From the UHGV virus genome UHGV-0268713: 34,690 nt of DNA. The stretch is one strand, 5' to 3'. Position 1 is the first letter of the stretch, and each line of letters starts with the position of its first letter. The translations under genes were made by a program, and so were the position numbers. Positions 7,095 through 34,375 of this stretch are shown one piece after another. Source of the stretch: a virus. A model generated the notes under the pieces. That model did not search any database, was not told the DNA's origin, and saw nothing but the letters and a program-made list of their open reading frames with translations.

Positions 7095-7325
7095 ATGAGC
7101 GATAACGGACATTTCGATTTCAAAAAGCACTGGCTTGCACTTACTCCGGATGAGCGTGAAGCCTTCGCACAGGAAGCCGGAACGACGAGTCACTATATCC
7201 AGACTCACTTAACAGGTAAGCGCAAAATGCCAGGTAAGGTATTGATGAATGGGCTTTTTAAAGCCTGTAAAACAAGACAATGGCTGCGCTCAAAAGCAGA
7301 ACTGGCATACTTCTTCTACTCATGA
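7095..7325 (+). CDS. Cro-like small HTH regulator
   Basis: 76 aa, divergent from the repressor; LTPDEREAFAQEAGTTSHYIQTHLTGKRKMP is HTH-like. Confidence 0.6.
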   Translation: MSDNGHFDFKKHWLALTPDEREAFAQEAGTTSHYIQTHLTGKRKMPGKVLMNGLFKACKTRQWLRSKAELAYFFYS

Positions 7326-24794: not shown

Positions 24795-25369
24795 TGTGCG
24801 ATCCGGTTATTGCTGGTGGCGCAATGCTCGCCATGAGTGGCATTCAGGCATACACCCAGTACCAACAGGGAAAGTATGCCTCGAAGGTTGCAGAAGCGAA
24901 CGCAGATATAGCCACTGCTCAGGCAAATGATGCAATAAACAGAGGTAACGCTGAAGCTGAGCAACGGCGCAGAGAGACCCGACAGCGGCTTGGTACACAG
25001 GCGGCGACAATGGGGGCTACCGGCGCTGATTTATCTACAGGTAACGCGCTGGATATATTTGGTGACACTGCTCAGTTTGGCGCTCTTGATGCGCTGACGA
25101 CGGTGAATAACGCGCAACGCGAGGCTTACGGTTATCAGGTTCAGGCTGCCAACTATAAAGCAGAAGCCAGTTCAGCCCGTAAACAGGGGAATGTGGGAGC
25201 AGCAACAACTTTGCTCACTGCGCCTCTGAAGGCATACGGTGCGTACCAGATGTTTGGTGGGACGTGGAGTCCGTTCTCTAAAGGAAGTACATCTAGTGGT
25301 GGGACGCCAATGTTATCTAACTCAGGTTTTATGAATTCTGACTCCCGATTCAAAATAGGAGGTTACTGA
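24794..25369 (+). CDS. Internal virion protein (gp14-like position)
   Basis: 191 aa, Ala/Gly/Gln-rich, typical composition for podovirus core proteins. Confidence 0.5.
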   Translation: MCDPVIAGGAMLAMSGIQAYTQYQQGKYASKVAEANADIATAQANDAINRGNAEAEQRRRETRQRLGTQAATMGATGADLSTGNALDIFGDTAQFGALDALTTVNNAQREAYGYQVQAANYKAEASSARKQGNVGAATTLLTAPLKAYGAYQMFGGTWSPFSKGSTSSGGTPMLSNSGFMNSDSRFKIGGY

Positions 25370-28086
25370 TGCCTGTTGTTCCTACTACATCCGGACGCCA
25401 GGTGCAAAGTCGTGGTGTGCAAACCGGTGGTTTTCAGACCTTCGATGTTCCTCAAGCAGGTCAGGTGCTGGCGAATGTCGCAGATCAGTATGCGGTGGCA
25501 TATGGTGAAGCCAGGCAGAAAGCGAATGTTGCATTGTCTCAGGATGCCATCCTTCAGCTTAATCAGCGCAGCAATGAACGTCTTTATAACCCTCAAACCG
25601 GTTTTTATGCACAACAAGGCAAAAATGCGATTGGTAAGGGGCAAGAGTACATATCTGGATTTGATCAGGATGTGGAAGAAATAGCTGCTTCATTGACTGA
25701 TGAAGCAGCAAGAAATATGTTTTTGCAACAAGCCAGAACACAGAAAATTCAGTTCAGTACTGGAGTTCTCAGACATGAGATAGGGCAGACAAATGCCTAT
25801 GAAGATGAGCAATATCAGGCAACGAGAAAATTATGGATACAAAATGAAGCGGATGCCTGGAATGACCCGCAAACTGCCACTTTAGCCAGAAATTCCAGAA
25901 TGGTAGCCATTGCCAGATATGGAGCTGCCAGGGGATGGTCACAAGAACGCATTCTGGAAGAAATAGAAAGTGATGATCGCAGTGCCACAGAAATGCGGGC
26001 GAAGAATTATGCCGCTGCCAATCCAGAAGGATGGCTAAATGGTCTGTTTCAGAAAAATGATTCTGGAGGCATGGACATGCGTGCCATACGCCTTGTTGAA
26101 TCAGGTGATCGACATTTTAATCCTGATGGTAGTCTTCTTGAGGGACCGATAACATCTTCTGGAGAGAGAGCCCAGGGGAAATACCAGTTAATGCCGGGCA
26201 CAGGAAAAGAACTGGCGGCCAAGCGTGGCGTTGAATACAACCCTACGGACGAACAACAGCATGAAATGCTCGCCAGTGACTATGTAAATCAACTGTATGG
26301 TAAGTACGGTTCCGAAATATTGACCGGAGCAGCATATAACTGGGGGATGGGTAACGTGGATAAACTGATCGCCAAAGTCGGTGATCCACGTAAAGGTGAA
26401 ATATCAGAAGAAGAATTTATCCGAAATCTTCCATCAGAAACACAAGGGTGGCTTTCCCGATATAGAAAAAATAAAACTGCAATGGATCCGCTGACTATTT
26501 ATCAAATAGATAACCTTGCTAATAGTCAGATAGAAAAGCAAAGGAAGTTAATATTAGAACAGCTTGAGCCAGCTATTAATAACACCATGGCCCAGCTATA
26601 TAACGGTGAGGTTCCAGATTATATACCGGCTCAGGAGACCATCATCAGGGGGTATGGAAAAAACGCAGATAAAATAATCAATCAACTGGATATAGCGATT
26701 GATAACGCGAGAATATTCCAGGCAATTCAGTATTTGCCTCCTTCTCAGCAGCAAGAAGAAATGCAGAAAGTGAAGCCTGAGGTTAACGATCCTCACTATG
26801 CGTTAAAACTCGATGCTTACGGAAAATTGTCTGCATTGCTTCAGAGATCAAATGAAGCAATTCAGGCGCAACGGGATTCACGCAGATTCAATGAGGCGCT
26901 GACAATAGGTGAAAAATTAGACCCAAGCAACAAGTCAATGCAGAAAGCTGCTGATTACACAGAAATGGCGCAGAACTTTCGTATTAATGATGCCTCCACT
27001 CATGATGGGGTTGTTCGGCTTGTGGCTCAGACTGGCATAATGCCTTCGCAGGTCATCACGCAGCTTTCAGCAGTATCCCGATCCAGCAATCAGGAAGTGG
27101 TTAAAAATGCGTCGGAACTGTTTAGTCGGTTATATGAAACAGACAATGCATCTATTGGAAATATGCCGAAGGATATGCAGGGTTTTTATCTGACTGTTAA
27201 GCAACTAACTGATTCTGGCATGTCTGCTGATGCGGCTATCGAGCAGGCGCAGAACCTTACGTACAACCAGACCGATGCTCTTAAAGCTCAATTGGCATCA
27301 ACGCAGAGTTCAAAAGAGTACAAAAATGATCGCAGCAAGGCGATGAATTCTGCTGTCAGCAATATGGCGCAGTGGTTCCGTTGGGATCCGTCTGCGGATG
27401 ACCAGACGCCGGAAGCAGCTAGATTCCGTAATGACTATCAGACGCTGTATGACATTAACTACCGCGTTGCTGGTGGTAACGCTGACGTAGCGAAGCAAAT
27501 GACCAACCAGCAGATAGCCCGCACCTGGAGTATCAGCGAGGTTAACGGAGAAGCGCAGTTTATGAAATATGCACCGGAGGCGCTTTATCAATATGGGCCG
27601 TCAGGCTGGCAGGCGGCGCAGTGGAAAGCTGAAAAAGAACGGCTGATGTACGGTGAGCGCAAAGAGATTATAACAACCAGCCCGACGTTGCTTGGGATCA
27701 CGTCAGGTAATGCTCCTGTAGTTGAGACAAAAACCCCTGAGAGTCGTATTAATGGAGAATTATTCATAACCCCTGACGTGTTAACACCCCGTAATGGTGA
27801 TTACGCCATTATGGTAAGAACTAAGGATGAAAATGGCATCGATCGGGTCCAGCCGTTTTATAACAAACATGGGCGTCCTATGCGTTGGGAACCATCACTA
27901 GAAGATTGGGAACCCTATAAGAAAATGCAGCAGGAACGGGAGCAGTACGAGCAGGAAGAAATTATGCGTGGACAGGCTATACGAAACTTCAAAGACAAGC
28001 ATCGCGCTCTGGATGAGCAGTATCAGCGCCTGCATAACGAACGTATGGATAAATTTAAAGATTACTTTTCGTGGGGATCTAAATAA
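25369..28086 (+). CDS. Internal core/ejection protein with lytic transglycosylase (SLT) domain
   Basis: 905 aa; GKYQLMPGTG ... AAYNWGMGNV matches the SLT-domain signature (GLMQ/AYNxGxGxV-type). Confidence 0.7.
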   Translation: MPVVPTTSGRQVQSRGVQTGGFQTFDVPQAGQVLANVADQYAVAYGEARQKANVALSQDAILQLNQRSNERLYNPQTGFYAQQGKNAIGKGQEYISGFDQDVEEIAASLTDEAARNMFLQQARTQKIQFSTGVLRHEIGQTNAYEDEQYQATRKLWIQNEADAWNDPQTATLARNSRMVAIARYGAARGWSQERILEEIESDDRSATEMRAKNYAAANPEGWLNGLFQKNDSGGMDMRAIRLVESGDRHFNPDGSLLEGPITSSGERAQGKYQLMPGTGKELAAKRGVEYNPTDEQQHEMLASDYVNQLYGKYGSEILTGAAYNWGMGNVDKLIAKVGDPRKGEISEEEFIRNLPSETQGWLSRYRKNKTAMDPLTIYQIDNLANSQIEKQRKLILEQLEPAINNTMAQLYNGEVPDYIPAQETIIRGYGKNADKIINQLDIAIDNARIFQAIQYLPPSQQQEEMQKVKPEVNDPHYALKLDAYGKLSALLQRSNEAIQAQRDSRRFNEALTIGEKLDPSNKSMQKAADYTEMAQNFRINDASTHDGVVRLVAQTGIMPSQVITQLSAVSRSSNQEVVKNASELFSRLYETDNASIGNMPKDMQGFYLTVKQLTDSGMSADAAIEQAQNLTYNQTDALKAQLASTQSSKEYKNDRSKAMNSAVSNMAQWFRWDPSADDQTPEAARFRNDYQTLYDINYRVAGGNADVAKQMTNQQIARTWSISEVNGEAQFMKYAPEALYQYGPSGWQAAQWKAEKERLMYGERKEIITTSPTLLGITSGNAPVVETKTPESRINGELFITPDVLTPRNGDYAIMVRTKDENGIDRVQPFYNKHGRPMRWEPSLEDWEPYKKMQQEREQYEQEEIMRGQAIRNFKDKHRALDEQYQRLHNERMDKFKDYFSWGSK

Positions 28087-31000
28087 TGCCAGTTTATGCA
28101 CAAGCTGAAGATCTTAATAACGGACTGATCCCGTCAGGTAATGTTTTGCCGGAACAAACTGGGTTTGATGTTGCCCTTCCGGAAGGGGCTAATCCTGAGC
28201 CATTGCCACCTGAGCCTTCCGTATGGGGGGCTGCAATGCGACAGAACAATATTCTGTCTGGTTTTTTCCGCCCAGCCAGACAGTTTGAACCGGTCGAGGG
28301 TTATAACCCATATGCTGATAAAAATGAGTTGCACGGTTATGAATACTGGGGGGCGAAATTTGCAGATTCCCGATCGCCAGAGGAAACGGCGTGGATTAAG
28401 CAGCAGATAGATGATGAAAATGAAGACAGACGTTTATTGTCTGATGCTGGCGTAGTTGGAACCCTTGCCAGTATTGCTGCGGGAATGGATCCGGTTACTG
28501 TTGCGTCAATGTTTATTCCCGGTGCTCAAGGAGGGGCACTGGCGCGTATTGGCTCACAGATTGCGATTGGTGCTGCCGGTACAGCATTAAGCGAGGTTGT
28601 ACTGAATAATCAGCAAATAACACGCTCATGGGGTGAAAGTGCCGCTCACGTTGCAGCGGGTGCGATGATGAGCGGCGTGTTTGCCAGTGCTGGTGTTGCG
28701 CTTTCGCCATCCGTCCGGGCTGCAGCCACACGTGAGGTTGCTGATGCTCTTGATAATATGAGCATTACATCAGCGACTGACAGGGCTGCCGCTTCGCTTT
28801 CCGATGGTGGTAGTGTTGGTGCTATGAAAATTGATACAGCGACTCTGGATGATTTAACCCCTGTTTCCGGTGGGTGGGTTGGAAAGGCTGCATGGAAAGC
28901 AGGGAGCTATCTTACTCCTTTGACAAGGTTAATGGAGTCTCCGTCCAAGACGGTGCGAAAAACAACGCTGGAGTTAGCCGAAAATAATTTCACCCTTAAA
29001 GGAAATGAAAGGGGGATTGAAACACCGGTAGCTGTAGAAACCCGTACACGTGGATGGCAGCGTGAAGAAGCTGCTGTTGTTGTCGGAAATAAACAGGCAT
29101 ACGCAAAGTATAAAGCTGATGGTGGTGACATGAGTTTTGATTCATTTCGTCAGCAGGTTGGGAATGCTATGCGAAGCGGTGATGTGCATGCTAATCCTGT
29201 TGTTCAGGAAACGGCGCAGGCGATGCGAACTGTATTAAATCGGGTGAAAGTTGAAATGCAAAAGCTTGGTTTATTGCCGCCAGATGAAGAACTGAAAGCA
29301 TTAGGCCAGGCAAGCTATTTCCCACGCATATATAAAGTTGGAAAAATAATCAGTGAACGCGATAAATTTCGACGTATTTTGGTTGGCTGGTGGTCGAGAG
29401 GAAATAAAACACTGGATCCTGAGGATGCTGAAATTGCAGCGGATATCGTAATTAATAAAATTACTGGTGCTAAGGTTCCACAGGATTTTGTCAGCGTATT
29501 TTCTGTAAAAGCCGCAGGTAGTACGAAAGAAAGAACATTAAATGTTCCTGATAGTCTTATCAGGGATTATCTTGAAAGTGATGTGAATTACGTGCTGCAA
29601 CGTCATATCCGTGAAGCGGCAGCAGAAATTGAGTTGACGAGAACATTTGGCAAACGAACTATGACTGAGCGTCTGCAATTAATTGAGGACGAATATGACA
29701 GTCTGTTACGGGAAGTGCCTGAAAAAATAAAGGCGAAATATGACGAAAGTGTGGCAAATCTGAAAGCACGTTATGAGAGCAATGGTGAAGTTGTTCCTCA
29801 GGGTAAACTCGATTCATTAATGCGAAAGTACGAAAAGGAATTACGGAAAGAACAGTCCAGACTTTCAAAATCAAGAGCAAATGATCTCAGAGACATAACA
29901 GCATTACGCGATCGTCTTGTTGGTACATATGGTATGCCTGATGATCCGTCTTCGTTTTTTGTTCGTGCTGGCGCTTTTCTGCGGGATGTGAACTTCACGA
30001 CCAAACTCGGTGGAATGACAGTATCAGCTATTCCAGATCTGGCCAGAGGGGTTATGGTTAATGGTTTCCGTAACACCATGAAAGGCTATGCTTCTCAGAT
30101 ATCCCAATCACCGGCATTTAAGGCCAGCAAAGAAGAGATGTTGAAGATGGGGATTGGATTGGAAGCTGTACTACATTCACGTTCTCGTGCAATTGGTGAT
30201 CTTGTTGACAGTTCTTCCAGGACAACAGCAGTCGAAGCAGGAATGGAGCGAATTACTGATGCCTTCGGCAAGCTGACACTCATGGATCGATTTAATGACA
30301 TAAACAAATCCATGAACGGAATGCTCACGTCAGACGGTATTTTGTCTGGTGCGTTTTCTGCACGTCGCATGGCAAAACTCGGTATCAACGACAATATGGC
30401 TGCGCGTATTCGCAGTGAGTTCGAGAAACATGGTGAGGTAATTGATGGATGGCACATTGGTAACTTTGATAAATGGGACGATCAGTACGTTGCCGGAGTA
30501 TTCCAGTCAGCGGTTCTGAAAGACGTTAATAACACTATCATCACCCCCGGTATTGGTGACACACCTTTATGGGCGAGTACTCCAATGGGGCGAACGATAT
30601 TTCAGTTTAAATCATTCACAACGGCTTCATACAACCGTGCGCTACTTGGTGGGTTACAGGAAGGAACTGCGCAATTTTATTATGGCACTGCATTTCAGAT
30701 TGCTCTTGGCTCACTGGTCTATGCGCTAAAAGAAGCATCGAAAGGGAAAAATGTTGACTGGTCACCAGAGAAGCTGGTGCTTGAGGGTATAGATAGATCC
30801 GGTATTCTTGGGCCATTGATGGAATATAACAACATGGCTGAAAAGGCTACTGGTGGTGCTGTTGGGCTGGGGGCTTTATTTGGCACTGGCACACAGTCTA
30901 GGTATGCCAGTCGTGGATTCGTAGGATCTCTATTCGGACCGTCATTTGGTCTTGCGGATAGCATCATTGATGTGACCGCAGGAGTGTTGAATGGTGATGC

Positions 31001-31100
31001 CGGTGATCGTATTGTGCATAATGTCCGAACCCTGATACCAGGCAATAACCTGTTCTGGATTGCGCCACTAATAAACCAGTTGGATCCGGTGATGCGGTGA
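28086..31100 (+). CDS. Large internal core/ejection protein
   Basis: 1004 aa, directly after the SLT-domain protein; composition is unlike a beta-helical tailspike. Confidence 0.6.
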   Translation: MPVYAQAEDLNNGLIPSGNVLPEQTGFDVALPEGANPEPLPPEPSVWGAAMRQNNILSGFFRPARQFEPVEGYNPYADKNELHGYEYWGAKFADSRSPEETAWIKQQIDDENEDRRLLSDAGVVGTLASIAAGMDPVTVASMFIPGAQGGALARIGSQIAIGAAGTALSEVVLNNQQITRSWGESAAHVAAGAMMSGVFASAGVALSPSVRAAATREVADALDNMSITSATDRAAASLSDGGSVGAMKIDTATLDDLTPVSGGWVGKAAWKAGSYLTPLTRLMESPSKTVRKTTLELAENNFTLKGNERGIETPVAVETRTRGWQREEAAVVVGNKQAYAKYKADGGDMSFDSFRQQVGNAMRSGDVHANPVVQETAQAMRTVLNRVKVEMQKLGLLPPDEELKALGQASYFPRIYKVGKIISERDKFRRILVGWWSRGNKTLDPEDAEIAADIVINKITGAKVPQDFVSVFSVKAAGSTKERTLNVPDSLIRDYLESDVNYVLQRHIREAAAEIELTRTFGKRTMTERLQLIEDEYDSLLREVPEKIKAKYDESVANLKARYESNGEVVPQGKLDSLMRKYEKELRKEQSRLSKSRANDLRDITALRDRLVGTYGMPDDPSSFFVRAGAFLRDVNFTTKLGGMTVSAIPDLARGVMVNGFRNTMKGYASQISQSPAFKASKEEMLKMGIGLEAVLHSRSRAIGDLVDSSSRTTAVEAGMERITDAFGKLTLMDRFNDINKSMNGMLTSDGILSGAFSARRMAKLGINDNMAARIRSEFEKHGEVIDGWHIGNFDKWDDQYVAGVFQSAVLKDVNNTIITPGIGDTPLWASTPMGRTIFQFKSFTTASYNRALLGGLQEGTAQFYYGTAFQIALGSLVYALKEASKGKNVDWSPEKLVLEGIDRSGILGPLMEYNNMAEKATGGAVGLGALFGTGTQSRYASRGFVGSLFGPSFGLADSIIDVTAGVLNGDAGDRIVHNVRTLIPGNNLFWIAPLINQLDPVMR

Positions 31101-31111
31101 GTTAAACGCCT

Positions 31112-31723
31112 TTAGCATGATTCAGGGGAAACCCCAATATTAAATATGAGTGACTCCCCTGAATCAGCATAATAATGTAATATTATTGACTTACGTTGTT
31201 TTCTTGCTTCGTAGAATAAACGCTCTTGCGGCGATAATTTGTGAAAACTGCCGGATGCACAATATATGTTTTTTAACTTTTCGCTGGTTGCTTTTATTGT
31301 ATCTTCTGAGATGTATTTTAGGTATTTATCCGTATAGATGTTGCTACTATAAGAAATTAATGTTTTGCTGTTGTTGTGATGTATTGTATTTTTATCGTTG
31401 AAGTCTGTATTTTTATTTACTGTCATTAGGTTTTTAATGATTACATGTAATGCAATAGTCTCCCCATCATCAATTCCATATTTGATGTCATAGTCAGTAT
31501 ATTTATTTGTTATACCGCTTCCTGATAGCGGCACTATGTACTCTGAGAAAAATGAGTTTGCCGCGTGACCATCAAGAGCAATAGCAGTTTTTTTGTGGTA
31601 AAAATAAAACAATATTGAGAGAGTCAAAATAATAGCGACGCCTAATGCAACCTTTAATATAGATATGGTTTTCAAAATATCGCTCCTTGTTGTAACATAC
31701 ATCAGTAATGTGGCGTTTTTCAA
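31112..31723 (-). CDS. AT-rich single-pass membrane protein (candidate superinfection-exclusion or lysogenic-conversion protein)
   Basis: Strongly AT-rich versus the rest of the window; N-terminal hydrophobic segment ILKTISILKVALGVAIILTLSILFYFY; directly downstream of the Mnt-like gene on the same strand. Start ambiguous (TTG 31723 or ATG 31702). Confidence 0.55.
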   Translation of the reverse strand: MKNATLLMYVTTRSDILKTISILKVALGVAIILTLSILFYFYHKKTAIALDGHAANSFFSEYIVPLSGSGITNKYTDYDIKYGIDDGETIALHVIIKNLMTVNKNTDFNDKNTIHHNNSKTLISYSSNIYTDKYLKYISEDTIKATSEKLKNIYCASGSFHKLSPQERLFYEARKQRKSIILHYYADSGESLIFNIGVSPESC

Positions 31724-31765
31724 TTGTATTAAAGACGTGTAATATGTACACGCCTTTTGTTCTTC

Positions 31766-32197
31766 CTATTCAGGTATTTCAATTCCAAAACCATCTGCAT
31801 CCCATGAGTTTTCACAGATGATGTAACCTAGTTCATTGAGCTTATTAAATGTTTTTTCAAAGATGATCTGGTAATCATTATCTGCAAGTGATTCCAGTTC
31901 AAGGTCATTAAGGTTTATATAAAAACTTGTATGTCCAAGTGTTATTTTTTTATTGATTTCATTAAAAGTTCTTTTGAAAATAATATTTGATATTTCATGC
32001 CGTGCATTGTTTGCAATAATTTTTGCTTCATAAGCAGAAATTACGTCATCTTCATGAATATCTTTCAGAAAGCTGGTGTCAAGACGTTGTACTATTTCAG
32101 CGTTCATTGATCGCTTATTGGCTTTTGCAGAAATTTCTATTTTTTCTTTTACTTCAACGGGAAGTCTGATCCTTAGTTGTGGATCTTCTCTGCTCAT
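31766..32197 (-). CDS. Mnt-like ribbon-helix-helix repressor fused to a C-terminal domain of unknown function
   Basis: ATG at 32197 with a GGTGAAG Shine-Dalgarno. N-terminus MSREDPQLRIRLPVEVKEKIEISAKANKRSMNAEIVQRL closely parallels P22 Mnt (MARDDPHFNFRMPMEVREKLKFRAEANGRSMNSELLQIV, recalled from memory). The remaining ~100 aa are AT-rich-encoded with no recognised domain. Confidence 0.7.
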   Translation of the reverse strand: MSREDPQLRIRLPVEVKEKIEISAKANKRSMNAEIVQRLDTSFLKDIHEDDVISAYEAKIIANNARHEISNIIFKRTFNEINKKITLGHTSFYINLNDLELESLADNDYQIIFEKTFNKLNELGYIICENSWDADGFGIEIPE

Positions 32198-32243
32198 GTT
32201 CTTCACCAAATATTGAGTTACTTGCAATGATTGAAGTATGCCT

Positions 32244-32303
32244 CACCGTGTGCTTGACATCAATGACGCACGGTGTGACAATTGTTTTGCCCCACGGTGG
32301 GGC
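32244..32303. promoter_or_regulatory. immI-like divergent promoter/operator region
   Basis: TTGACA (32255-32260), 17-nt spacer, GACAAT (32278-32283) reading rightward; flanking inverted repeat CACCGTG (32244-32250) / CACGGTG (32269-32275); palindrome GCCCCACGGTGGGGC (32289-32303), whose core CCACGGTGG resembles the P22 Mnt operator as recalled. Confidence 0.45.
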
Positions 32304-32317
32304 TAAGGAGATATGAA

Positions 32318-32485
32318 ATGCAAAAAGCAAAAGAGATGTGTCAACGACGAGTTCGTTTTCCGGACGATGTGAAGTTAGCTATTGAAAGAAATGGCGAAAA
32401 AGAATGCCGAAAGTTCAATACAGAGATTATCTATCAGCTGAGGAAAGTGTATGGACTCACTGGTGAGAAGAATAGCGTGGCATAA
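32318..32485 (+). CDS. Arc-like ribbon-helix-helix repressor
   Basis: ATG at 32318 with an AAGGAG Shine-Dalgarno; 55 aa; RVRFPDDVKLAIERNGEKECRKFNTEIIYQL fits the Arc/Mnt RHH pattern; immediately upstream of the antirepressor. Confidence 0.6.
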   Translation: MQKAKEMCQRRVRFPDDVKLAIERNGEKECRKFNTEIIYQLRKVYGLTGEKNSVA

Positions 32486-32557
32486 AACAGCGAAGCCCAA
32501 CGGTGGCCAGACCGTCAGGGCTTCAGTATCGTAAAACTACGTATAGGAATTAACGAC
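32483..32557 (-). ncRNA. Candidate sar-like antisense RNA covering the antirepressor ribosome-binding site
   Basis: Minus-strand sigma70-like promoter TTGATA (32592-32587), 17 nt, TATACT (32569-32564); hairpin GAAGCCC-N19-GGGCTTC (32492-32524) followed on the minus strand by GCTGTTTTA. Predicted transcript of about 70 nt. Confidence 0.3.
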
Positions 32558-33502
32558 ATGACGAGTATAGCAACAGCGGTATCTACTATCAACGTGCCAT
32601 TCCACGGCGCAGAACTTTATGTTGTCAATCACAACGGAGAACCGTACACCCCAATGAAACCTATCGTTGAAGGCATGGGTATGGATTGGGCTTCACAGTT
32701 TACGAAAATGAAGCAGCGGTTTAAAACCTGCATTGTGAAAATCACAATGCAGCTTCCTGGGGATGAACAGCGCCGTGAGATTATTTGTTTGGCACTTCGC
32801 AAACTTGCTGGCTGGTTGCAAACCATCAGCCCTAACAAAGTCCGCCCTGAAATCCGCGACAAGGTAATCCAGTATCAGGAAGAGTGTGACGATGTGCTCT
32901 ACGAGTACTGGACTAAAGGCCATGTGGTTAACCCACGCAAAGCTAAAAAGGCGTTGCCGGGTAAAATAACCACTGAACAGCAGGAAGCCATTAAACAACT
33001 CGTCATGAGTCGCGGTCAGTCTCTACCAAAAGAAAAACAGGCTAAGGCGATGATCACCATGTGGTCGTCACTGAAATCTCATTTTGGCTGTTCGTACAAA
33101 GAAATTGGTGAAGATCAATTTGCCGAAGCGTTGTCTCTTGTTGCTCGGGTTCCGCTTGAAGGGGAGTATCTCCCTGCTGGATCTGCATCAGAGAATGATG
33201 AAGTGGCAGTCAAGATGTTAGATGCGCTTCGTGAGGCAATTAAAACACAGACAAAATGTTATGGTTATCCACTGAAGCCCGGCTACCGCAGCCTGATTCA
33301 TTCGCCGTCTGGTGTTCTCGGCCTGACGGAGAACTCACTGCTGATGAATTTGCTGAACCAGTTACAGGAAGACGGGCATGACGTATCGGGCGCGGCGGCG
33401 GAACTGACCACCATGTTCTGCTACATCGTCGGTGTGAGTAAATGCCTGCGTGATATCCAGACCCACGCGGAGTACATCAACGACAAGGCAGGGTTCTTCT
33501 GA
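32558..33502 (+). CDS. Antirepressor paralog 2 (AntA-like N-terminal domain plus KilAC-type C-terminal domain)
   Basis: 314 aa; its C-terminal ~75 aa are identical in protein to antirepressor 1; sits downstream of the arc-like gene as in P22 immI. Confidence 0.85.
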   Translation: MTSIATAVSTINVPFHGAELYVVNHNGEPYTPMKPIVEGMGMDWASQFTKMKQRFKTCIVKITMQLPGDEQRREIICLALRKLAGWLQTISPNKVRPEIRDKVIQYQEECDDVLYEYWTKGHVVNPRKAKKALPGKITTEQQEAIKQLVMSRGQSLPKEKQAKAMITMWSSLKSHFGCSYKEIGEDQFAEALSLVARVPLEGEYLPAGSASENDEVAVKMLDALREAIKTQTKCYGYPLKPGYRSLIHSPSGVLGLTENSLLMNLLNQLQEDGHDVSGAAAELTTMFCYIVGVSKCLRDIQTHAEYINDKAGFF

Positions 33503-33552: not shown

Positions 33553-33578
33553 AGGCCGCTTTCGCGGCCTTGTTTTTA
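33553..33578 (+). terminator. Rho-independent terminator after antirepressor 2
   Basis: AGGCCGC-TTTC-GCGGCCT followed by TGTTTTT. Confidence 0.6.
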
Positions 33579-33737
33579 ACGAATGCCACCGCCGCCAGGG
33601 CGGGAATCCGCAGAACGCCCACCGCAGCGGGAGCCGTCAGCGGCAGTATCGCTGTCGTGCTGACAACGACCGGCAAAGGCCTGAGTTGAAGCTACCAGAG
33701 ACAACAAAACGAACAGTGCAGCAAATGCTTTTTTCAT
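33576..33737 (-). CDS. Candidate small secreted peptide (53 aa with signal peptide)
   Basis: MKKAFAALFVLLSLVASTQAFA looks like a Sec signal peptide with an AxA cleavage site; the predicted mature 31-aa peptide is Gly/Arg-rich with two Cys. Upstream promoter-like TTGACG, 16-17 nt, TATAGA; no clear Shine-Dalgarno. Confidence 0.3.
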   Translation of the reverse strand: MKKAFAALFVLLSLVASTQAFAGRCQHDSDTAADGSRCGGRSADSRPGGGGIR

Positions 33738-33807
33738 TGTGAAATTTCCATCTATAAGCCACCTCAATGTGGCGTCAATGAGTGTAGCACTGACTTTTGT
33801 TTCGTCC

Positions 33808-33830
33808 ACAAAAAAGCCCGCGCTGCGGGC
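33808..33830 (-). terminator. Rho-independent terminator for the accessory operon
   Basis: GCCCGC-GCT-GCGGGC hairpin (33816-33830) followed on the minus strand by TTTTTTGT. Confidence 0.55.
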
Positions 33831-34375
33831 TATTCCTTCCATTTATCAGAAAAAAGATCTTCTTCTAAAGGCATTGGTTCTGTTTTTGTTTTCTCAAAGA
33901 ATTGATAACTGATAGTGATTGCTGCCTCTTTAAACTCTTCTTGCTCAGTTATGTTGTGAGCATCTGCGTCAACAAAAAACATAACCAGCGCATCACGATT
34001 GTGATTTACCGAATAAACTAAAAAGCAATCACTTGTTGGTATGCATTTTACTTGTACAGACGCTATATTTTTCCATGCATCCCAAGATGATTTTTTACCA
34101 GTGTGTTTTTTATCACTATCTTCTGGAATATAGTCTTGGTTATCGACATGAGTATGCCTGACATTTAGTTTAAGCATTTCTGTCGGACGAGCAAATGCAG
34201 CATCTTTACCAAGAGATGGATGGTATCCCGTTTTCCAATACTGGGTAAAGGCATCAGATACTTTCTTCAGCTCAAGATCAGATGCACAAAGGGCCGAGAA
34301 ATTTTGCGTATGCAATACTCGACCCTTATATCTGACAATTTGATTTTTATCATTCTGCGACGCAGACGAACTCAT
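33830..34375 (-). CDS. Hypothetical protein (181 aa), AT-rich accessory gene
   Basis: ATG at 34375 with an AAGGA Shine-Dalgarno; low GC; no confidently recognised domain. Weak resemblance of HTH and LVY...H segments to YafO-type toxins is unverified recall. Confidence 0.55.
   Translation of the reverse strand: MSSSASQNDKNQIVRYKGRVLHTQNFSALCASDLELKKVSDAFTQYWKTGYHPSLGKDAAFARPTEMLKLNVRHTHVDNQDYIPEDSDKKHTGKKSSWDAWKNIASVQVKCIPTSDCFLVYSVNHNRDALVMFFVDADAHNITEQEEFKEAAITISYQFFEKTKTEPMPLEEDLFSDKWKE

Follow-up and report, generated by a model that had tools for sequence, protein, structure and literature searches.

Do two small AT-rich genes that lie side by side behind the ejection-protein genes of an Escherichia coli prophage form one acquired unit, and could either of them help to keep other phages out? 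This question is raised by bases 31112–32197 of virus genome UHGV-0268713 (34,690 nt, or 34.7 kb, the whole of which is called the window here), which are filled by two co-oriented minus-strand open reading frames (ORFs), one for a 143-amino acid (aa) protein related to the Mnt repressor of phage P22 and the other for a 187-aa protein with one hydrophobic segment. A preliminary description of this DNA had taken the two for a single, separately acquired module that might act in superinfection exclusion or defence. The window is classified as a phiV10/TL-2011b-type E. coli prophage (genus Uetakevirus, the epsilon15-like podoviruses); its first 25 kb are 97–98% identical to HEMP4, TL-2011b, ZX5, PAS61 and phiV10, and bases 31112–32197 have 99% DNA identity to Escherichia phage TL-2011b. 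We find that the two genes are unrelated neighbours and not one co-acquired functional cassette. The explanation that best covers the whole, to which we assign a probability of roughly 0.55, is that one gene encodes a long-form Mnt belonging to a mnt-arc-ant module, and the other a separate exported protein whose most likely role is superinfection exclusion.

The surroundings of the pair indicate the kind of region in which it lies. On one side the plus-strand late operon ends with the genes for a 905-aa and then a 1004-aa ejection protein, and on the other side are plus-strand genes for a 55-aa Arc-like protein and a 314-aa antirepressor (feature coordinates are collected in Table 1). The annotated order in P22 is gene 16 (injection protein), a convergent sieA gene with its own promoter, a terminator, orf59a, mnt, the overlapping promoters Pmnt and Pant with their operators, arc and ant; with the exception of orf59a this order is matched gene for gene, and the earlier comparison of the position with that of P22 sieA holds. 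Bases 31112–33502 are read here as an immI-type secondary immunity region with the layout of P22 gene 16–sieA–mnt–arc–ant: gene order and orientation are the same as in P22 immI, the ribbon-helix-helix proteins are homologous, the operators overlap the ant promoter in both, and the annotated terminator of P22 sits at the place equivalent to a hairpin between the two window genes. Unlike in P22, the module occurs here in a Uetakevirus and elsewhere in the tail regions of siphoviruses. What is new is the immI/sieA layout in another phage genus, with two uncharacterised proteins, and not a new kind of system.

The pair has a G+C content of 0.326 (exported-protein gene 0.328, Mnt-like gene 0.319), while the window averages 0.484, and it is the lowest 1086-bp segment of the whole 34.7 kb (z = −4.4; standard deviation 0.036 for segments of this size), so the description of two co-oriented AT-rich genes is correct. 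The separate acquisition that had been read from this composition does not follow from it, because both genes have distant homologues that likewise exceed their flanks in AT content. In Enterobacter the Mnt-like genes have a G+C of 0.43 (flanks 0.51) and in Yersinia 0.40 (flanks 0.46), and homologues of the exported-protein gene in distant phages have 0.32–0.37 against 0.39–0.47. Low G+C is therefore no evidence of recent separate acquisition, and AT-richness is a stable trait of both gene families.

The partners of the two genes elsewhere differ. The comparison set for the Mnt-like gene was 63 further viral contigs with Mnt-like homologues of 57–67% identity. A divergent Arc-like gene is present in 62 of these, 74–129 bp away (118–129 bp in all but one); three CACGGTG/CACCGTG copies lie in 59 of the 62 mnt-arc intergenic regions, an antirepressor-sized ORF (100–364 aa) follows the Arc-like gene in 56 of the 62, the gene downstream of mnt is convergent in 57 of the 63 contigs, and the exported-protein gene is found in none of the 63. 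Siphovirus prophages of Enterobacter and Y. pestis likewise have mnt among their tail genes, divergent from a 55-aa gene with a Bro-N/P22_AR_C antirepressor gene behind it; here too a convergent gene lies downstream of mnt. In these contigs and in the Enterobacter and Yersinia genomes, all outside the TL-2011b lineage, the Mnt-like gene accompanies arc-ant and in no case the 187-aa gene, and Mnt, Arc and Ant constitute a conserved mobile three-gene module of Enterobacterales prophages. The 187-aa gene travels with the ejection-protein gene: all 30 loci examined, 18 of them close E. coli loci and 12 distant, show it in convergent orientation to the last large ejection-protein gene, and mnt, arc and ant are all missing from the 12 distant, Providencia/Proteus-type loci. 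The two genes are also under opposite selection. Among TL-2011b-type prophages the Mnt-like gene is under strong purifying selection, with 1 nonsynonymous and 8 synonymous variable codons (ratio of nonsynonymous to synonymous substitution rates, dN/dS, ~0.02), whereas near-identical prophages differ in the 187-aa gene at 10 nonsynonymous and 3 synonymous codons (dN/dS ~0.88), a codon ratio significantly above that of either the Mnt-like gene (Fisher p = 0.0075) or the ejection-protein gene (p = 0.012).

The 90-bp gap between the two genes holds a hairpin directly after the Mnt-like stop codon, with an RNA stem of 11 bp (AAAGGCGUGUA / UACACGUCUUU) followed by a short U-rich tail, which is a possible weak bidirectional terminator separating the genes. 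Two sigma-70-like promoter sequences in the gap are consensus matches only, the gap being no richer in such matches than shuffled sequence, and a window-wide scan for the operator pattern of the mnt-arc intergenic region (below) found none before the exported-protein gene. Adjacency, common orientation, the 90-bp spacing and similar AT-richness would all fit a cassette for defence or exclusion, acquired and transcribed as one, whose repressor uses its extra domain to sense or control the membrane effector, and so would the fact that both genes are present in each of the 36 E. coli genomes and each of the 18 viral contigs belonging to the TL-2011b lineage; the hairpin, moreover, is only a modest terminator, so that read-through is possible. 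Yet the missing co-occurrence beyond that lineage, the lack of an operator near the 187-aa gene, the opposite selection on the two genes and the failure of either protein to find a credible match in PADLOC-DB 2.0 stand against such a cassette, which the comparative data have largely refuted and which we regard as very improbable; the claim that the pair is one module is given up. A type II toxin-antitoxin pair was also rejected, on the same lack of co-occurrence outside the TL-2011b lineage and on an exported domain that is atypical for a type II toxin.

We identify the 143-aa protein as a long-form Mnt on the following grounds. A ribbon-helix-helix domain occupies its residues 2–46 (Pfam PF03869, Arc; 54.5 bits against a curated cut-off of 20.4) and its best solved relative is P22 Mnt (PDB 1mnt, E 3.5e-7), in agreement with the original call of an Mnt-like repressor. 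It matches PHROG 1388, an uncharacterised family (E 5e-72), and PHROG 795, the Mnt family, aligns with its residues 1–84. In BLASTP alignments P22 Mnt (83 aa) matches residues 1–86 end-to-end (32% identity, E 3e-14) and ST64T Mnt (82 aa) matches residues 1–84 end-to-end (40% identity, E 1e-15). The gene is, as is typical of a P22-type mnt, divergent from arc-ant, with symmetric operators that overlap the ant promoter, and a role of its product as the maintenance repressor of the mnt-arc-ant module is highly probable. The family is widespread, with 262 full-length homologues of 58–69% identity across the Enterobacterales (Citrobacter, Enterobacter, Salmonella, Klebsiella, Proteus, Yersinia, Morganella and Cronobacter), which are 142–154 aa long except for a few longer or truncated calls; one Yersinia cluster is present on 557 Y. 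pestis contigs. The long-form module as such is found in Enterobacter, Salmonella, Citrobacter and Proteus and on these Y. pestis contigs, and a related form exists in Pseudomonas Pf prophages.

Two side observations concern the records of these genes. TL-2011b itself (NC_019445, ~7171–7175) has a 1-nt insertion, AGG to AGGG, at codons 9–10 of the Mnt-like gene (32170–32173 in the window), which shifts the frame within the DNA-reading beta-strand, and the annotation there gives a truncated 113-aa protein; the reading frame is intact in the window and in 16 other copies. The frameshift could stem from a sequencing error in the homopolymer, or TL-2011b, a phage recovered as free particles, could carry a true mnt-defective allele. 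The label "partition protein ATPase" carried by P22 mnt (NC_002371) and by PHROGs 795 and 2685 is an annotation error that is spreading to RefSeq phage records.

How much of the 143-aa protein is an addition to Mnt? About 100 extra C-terminal residues had been proposed, but because P22 Mnt aligns end-to-end with residues 1–86, the extra part (143 aa against the 83 aa of P22 Mnt) amounts to about 57 residues, 87–143, which have no PDB or Pfam match. An AlphaFold2 model built with 37 homologues has a mean predicted local distance difference test score (pLDDT) of 81.5 and values of ~82–93 over most of residues 51–140; it contains a long helix at 55–87, a strand at 91–95, a helix at 106–123 and a hairpin at 126–140, so that residues 87–143 make up an extra strand-helix-strand-strand unit. 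Helix 55–87 is collinear with the C-terminal helix of P22 Mnt, in an alignment that continues to the very C-terminus of that protein, and sequence similarity within the helix is weak. The tetramerisation domain of P22 Mnt is PDB 1QEY. To the question whether the extension is a known oligomerisation domain the answer is divided: its first helix, 55–87, is probably the Mnt tetramerisation helix, and the last 57 residues have a fold without a match to any recognised domain. Profile searches of PDB sequences with the 143-aa protein returned ribbon-helix-helix matches only, with none in the C-terminal addition, and Pfam gave no match to residues 52–143 even at E ≤ 1. A protein of a Pseudomonas Pf filamentous prophage, PfAC03 ORF7, has in common with it the ribbon-helix-helix and the addition as far as residue 125 (40% identity, E 4e-28); its gene is divergent from an excisionase gene at the inovirus repressor locus, where there is no arc-ant pair (PMC7549136).

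The intergenic region between mnt and arc contains the sites on which such a repressor would act. The pattern TGMCNCACSGTGKG occurs in the window only at 32239–32304, with four matches where chance would give 0.38, and a count of four was not reached in any of 100 shuffles. The three operator-like sites, O3, O2 and O1, start 25 and 24 bp apart; their core is invariant across the Enterobacter and Y. pestis modules, and the control region has a mean column identity of 82% across genera. O2 lies within the spacer of the Pant-like promoter and O1 at its predicted start site. The −35 hexamer of a putative Pmnt-like promoter overlaps the Pant −35 hexamer, and O3 lies within its spacer; this Pmnt is a reading of the cross-genus alignment and was not reported by the promoter scan. 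Inspection of the mnt-arc intergenic region by eye found no LexA box (CTGT-N8-ACAG). P22 differs in having one Mnt and one Arc operator where the window has three sites with a CACNGTG core 24–25 bp apart, and in the residues of the DNA-reading strand, which are H-N-R and Q-N-R in P22 (with the P22 Arc sequence of this alignment entered by hand) and which follow a common Q-x-R/K-x-R pattern in both window repressors. The Arc-like protein is 62–71% identical to the products of the 55-aa genes of the Enterobacter and Yersinia modules.

From this arrangement the following control can be proposed. A dimer of the Mnt-like ribbon-helix-helix protein most likely binds the three CACNGTG operators in the 120-bp intergenic region, and the Arc-like protein, having the same DNA-reading strand, probably binds them too. 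Occupancy in a lysogen would keep the antirepressor off through O2 and O1 on Pant and would make the Mnt-like gene autoregulated through O3 on Pmnt. The Mnt-type helix and the extra 57-residue unit together would most likely give the higher-order oligomerisation needed to occupy three phased sites. Because the starts of successive operators are 25 and 24 bp, or ~2.3 helical turns, apart, the sites should face ~120 degrees away from one another, a geometry that would suit a trimer of dimers or DNA wrapping rather than a flat dimer of dimers. For the C-terminal addition taken by itself an oligomerisation role is a tentative proposal, and we would not quite put even odds on it. An understanding of the extra domain would explain how the antirepressor is controlled in many lysogens of clinical relevance. 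As a separate observation, the N-terminal two-thirds of ant (window 32492–33167) has 85–91% DNA identity to ant of the P22-like phage CUS-3 (CP000711 5892–6560) and also to ant genes of a Salmonella phage and of many Shiga toxin (Stx)-converting phages, and the flanking mnt and arc do not; a mosaic joint lies inside the immI module, and CUS-3 is annotated with a "boundary sequence" there.

The 187-aa protein is the part of the region to which an exclusion function would fall. Its gene most likely starts at TTG 31675: a Shine-Dalgarno sequence, AAGGAG, precedes this codon by 7 nt, and the resulting N-terminus is in agreement with those of homologues, with the TL-2011b annotation and with the PHROG 8033 profile. 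Hydropathy gives a single N-terminal hydrophobic segment (residues 4–26), a signal anchor or signal peptide, followed by a predicted periplasmic domain of ~155 aa containing Cys139 and Cys187. These two cysteines are invariant across the family alignment, as are Tyr, Pro and Phe columns, and several remote homologues have classical cleavable signal peptides; because of these signal peptides and the invariant cysteines we read the protein as an exported and probably disulfide-bonded (Cys139–Cys187) periplasmic domain, which in the window version would be held by an uncleaved or poorly cleaved signal anchor. Its topology and its expression in lysogens are presumed in what follows. A lipoprotein was rejected, as there is no Cys in the N-terminal region. 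The preliminary description of a single-pass membrane protein without a recognised domain is right as to the one segment and the lack of a Pfam match (NCBIfam gave none either), but the protein does belong to a described, though uncharacterised, family, PHROG 8033 (E 7e-127), as its neighbour does to PHROG 1388. For the Mnt-like protein, Pfam, NCBIfam and PADLOC together yielded only the Arc domain. A PADLOC match of the 187-aa protein to the TIR-like ThsB (E 0.013, 13.9 bits, on the predicted periplasmic region) was dismissed as noise, the viral structures of BFVD gave no match at E ≤ 0.001, and literature searches found no paper on either protein family. The best fold matches of the 187-aa model are PA3611 (PDB 3NPD), a secreted Pseudomonas protein, and the secretin pilotin AspS (PDB 4FTF), at 9–14% sequence identity; they are tentative because the model is weak, and they imply no functional link. 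A profile search of the PDB gave the iota-carbonic anhydrase 7c5x at E 3e-7, only as the sum of three non-significant repeats (independent E 0.45–0.8 and above), a weak lead to an NTF2/SnoaL-like hairpin and no finding.

The family is very rare. A word-indexed search yielded four near-identical clusters, an exhaustive HMMER scan 17 representatives among 1.84 billion, and a profile search 11; among 50,697 phage records it is present only in TL-2011b. Its remote homologues (28–35% identity) are from Providencia, Proteus and related prophages, and it is confined to such prophages, with none on bacterial chromosomes outside them. In the distant loci the ejection proteins are 41–50% identical to those of the window and the 187-aa homologues 28–30%. 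Sister E. coli prophages whose ejection protein is 96–97% identical (loci L002 and L003) have other small AT-rich membrane-protein genes in the same slot, and the more distant relative phiv142-3 has yet another arrangement there; the 187-aa gene is absent from phiv142-3 and from phiV10. The stretch that separates the ejection genes from the tailspike is already known as a variable slot for morons (PMC8022706). The 187-aa protein is best described as an accessory of epsilon15-like phages that is rare, evolves fast and keeps synteny with the ejection genes. By way of side observations, the slot holds a gene for a 175-aa protein with a signal peptide in L011 (5352–5879) and for a 98-aa protein with three transmembrane segments in L015 (3223–3519); the slot genes of L002, L003, L011 and L015 are all AT-rich and none is functionally annotated, and the slot genes of related prophages would together be a useful panel of candidates for exclusion. 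Another homologue, P0142 (264 aa, on a Logan contig of 32 kb), has a C-terminal fusion (…VEGYNPFDTPRELEGYE…SPEETRAIK…) that resembles the N-terminus of the 1004-aa ejection protein and is followed by a transmembrane segment; either a rearrangement or misassembly at the convergent junction could account for this fusion.

Is this gene functional at all? A decaying or non-functional remnant might be expected to show the dN/dS of ~0.88 found among close alleles, the in-frame 7-codon deletion of one allele and the TTG start. Against this, none of the 19 full-length ungapped copies has a broken ORF, 36 complete E. coli genomes contain the region in full, the AAGGAG Shine-Dalgarno sequence is strong, and invariant Cys, Tyr and Pro columns persist across homologues of 28–35% identity. 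Long-range dN/dS is 0.12–0.31, because of which we take the gene to be functional, and a remnant is scarcely credible.

For that function the hypothesis with the best support, which we favour tentatively, is superinfection exclusion acting at the periplasm or inner membrane. The 187-aa protein, encoded by a separate gene in the variable slot behind the ejection-protein genes, exported by its N-terminal signal anchor and expressed from the prophage, would, when related podoviruses come in, interfere with their ejection-protein conduit in the periplasm or at the inner membrane, a conduit that would include the ejection protein bearing the SLT domain. The obvious comparison is P22 SieA (PHROG 7745), which blocks DNA entry and is escaped by mutations in the ejection proteins gp16 and gp20 (PMC10883804). 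The sieA gene has the same position, convergent with the last ejection-protein gene, downstream of mnt and before the tailspike gene; its product is, like the 187-aa protein, membrane-associated and of similar size (162–164 aa against 187), and the slot varies between related phages. SieA has three transmembrane helices and an FxRYPxEAxxFNK motif (Leavitt et al. 2024, PMC10883804), whereas the 187-aa protein has one hydrophobic segment and an exported globular domain and lacks that motif, and the phage type and ejection proteins also differ. Since it shares the position but not the sequence, PHROG family, topology or motif, the 187-aa protein is not a member of the SieA family, and it may work like SieA without homology.

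A second comparison is with Spackle (Sp) and Imm of phage T4, which are periplasmic or inner-membrane exclusion proteins; T4 gp5 carries a lysozyme that Spackle inhibits. The 187-aa protein is likewise small and exported and could act in the periplasm on incoming penetration machinery, and the neighbouring ejection protein of the window bears an SLT lytic transglycosylase domain that might be set beside the lysozyme on gp5, a mechanistic parallel that is purely of our own drawing. Spackle comes from a lytic phage and the 187-aa protein from a prophage, and the two would not be expected to be homologous.

Other functions have to be weighed against exclusion. The protein might be a moron for lysogenic conversion or host fitness (for example a periplasmic protein concerned with the envelope, adhesion or virulence) with no anti-phage role, in a position that is merely a permissive insertion hot spot; the variable slot, the fold matches to a secreted Pseudomonas protein and a secretin pilotin, and the AT-rich, independently transcribed layout, which is typical of morons with many functions, are all consistent with this. 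Adjacency to the ejection gene in 30 of 30 loci, maintained even where the ejection proteins are only 41–50% identical, is more than a random hot-spot occupant would show, however, and the family is restricted to this phage type, so that exclusion ranks ahead of a phage-unrelated moron function, which we judge rather unlikely. The same tight and ancient synteny and the co-divergence with the ejection-protein genes, together with a periplasmic location, where ejection proteins act, could instead mean that the protein serves the phage's own cycle alongside them, in DNA delivery, envelope penetration, lysis or release. Such a service is improbable: the gene is on the opposite strand, convergent with the late operon, and would not be transcribed with the structural genes, and its absence from L002 and L003, and from phages with the same backbone such as phiV10 and phiv142-3, shows it to be dispensable for the cycle.

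Several points weigh against the combination that we prefer, a long-form Mnt beside a separate exclusion protein. Neither in sequence nor in fold does the 187-aa protein resemble any known exclusion protein; its pairwise comparison with P22 SieA gives E 0.14, and PHROG 7745 matches SieA and not the 187-aa protein. Its topology is assigned by homology because a Lys-Lys follows the hydrophobic segment in the window protein, and its structural model is weak (pLDDT 66, with one of five models usable). Synteny with the ejection genes could reflect vertical inheritance alone. The raised dN/dS among close alleles is derived from 13 variable codons and may be a short-timescale effect, because Proteus alleles show it too (0.4–1.2). 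DNA of 33% G+C is typically silenced by H-NS in E. coli, which could limit expression in lysogens, and partial read-through from Pmnt into the exported-protein gene may occur. On the side of the repressor, the homology of helix 55–87 to the Mnt tetramerisation helix depends on a weak though collinear alignment, and the oligomerisation role of the C-terminal addition is purely what we infer.

A bolder and more doubtful proposal joins the two proteins: the 187-aa protein would found a new periplasmic exclusion family of epsilon15/phiV10-like podoviruses, a non-homologous functional replacement of SieA that has stayed beside its target genes across great evolutionary distances and that neutralises the incoming conduit, perhaps its SLT transglycosylase, in the manner of Spackle, and in the long Mnt the C-terminal domain would represent a novel fold for oligomerisation, bringing together three ribbon-helix-helix dimers on operators whose phasing is ~24.5 bp (roughly 120 degrees). 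If the 187-aa protein does act in exclusion, it would be a second, structurally unrelated solution to the problem that SieA solves, and a handle on how DNA passes through the periplasm in epsilon15/phiV10-type phages, which are of use in O157/Shiga toxin-producing E. coli (STEC) typing, as reporters and in biocontrol.

Table 1. Features of the immI-type region of the window and, in the last two lines, of the corresponding slot in two sister prophages (numbered in their own loci).
Feature	Position	Strand	Size or elements	Basis and remarks
Ejection protein with SLT domain	25369–28086	+	905 aa	SLT Pfam E 3.7e-7
Last large ejection (internal virion) protein	28086–31100	+	1004 aa	Follows the 905-aa gene; convergent with exported-protein gene
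Exported-protein gene (predicted)	31112–31675	−	187 aa, TTG start	Shine-Dalgarno, hydropathy, PHROG 8033; sieA position
Two overlapping weak sigma-70-like promoter matches	31694–31750	−	TGTACA-16-TACAAT, TTGAAA-18-TATGTT	
Hairpin core directly after Mnt-like stop codon	31736–31752	−		Minimum free energy fold; terminator-like site reported on + strand
Mnt-like repressor gene	31766–32197	−	143 aa	Pfam Arc, PHROG 1388, PDB 1mnt, P22/ST64T Mnt alignments
Putative Pmnt-like promoter	32235–32263	−	TTGATG, 17 nt, CATACT (CATAAT in other species)	Read from cross-genus alignment
Three operator-like sites, CACNGTG core	32239–32304		O3 32239–32253, O2 32264–32280, O1 32289–32303	Repeat family D1
Pant-like promoter for arc-ant	32254–32282	+	TTGACA, 17 nt, GACAAT, upstream TG	Strong match (promoter scan and sequence reading)
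Arc-like ribbon-helix-helix gene	32318–32485	+	55 aa	PHROG 228 Arc-like repressor E 3.4e-5; divergent from Mnt-like gene
Antirepressor Ant	32558–33502	+	314 aa	Pfam P22_AR_N E 9.7e-45; PHROG 524/245 anti-repressor Ant
Slot gene of sister prophage L002	5123–5650		175 aa	One transmembrane segment
Slot gene of sister prophage L003	5120–5416		98 aa	Two transmembrane segments

Beyond ant the variable region holds two further minus-strand features. A gene for a YafO-like toxin (190 aa, Pfam YafO_toxin E 1.2e-5, G+C 0.37) and an overlapping upstream 59-aa ORF (34350–34529) occupy 33830–34529 and may be a toxin-antitoxin or abortive-infection pair; homologues of the YafO-like protein (43–45% identity) are also present in the Providencia loci L011 and L012. 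The small ORF at 33576–33842 has an internal Met start that would give a ~53-aa peptide with a typical signal peptide (MKKAFAALFVLLSLVASTQAFA) and a Gly/Ser/Asp-rich tail containing two Cys; it is annotated in TL-2011b as a transmembrane-anchored protein, and its G+C of 0.53 is high, unlike that of its neighbours.

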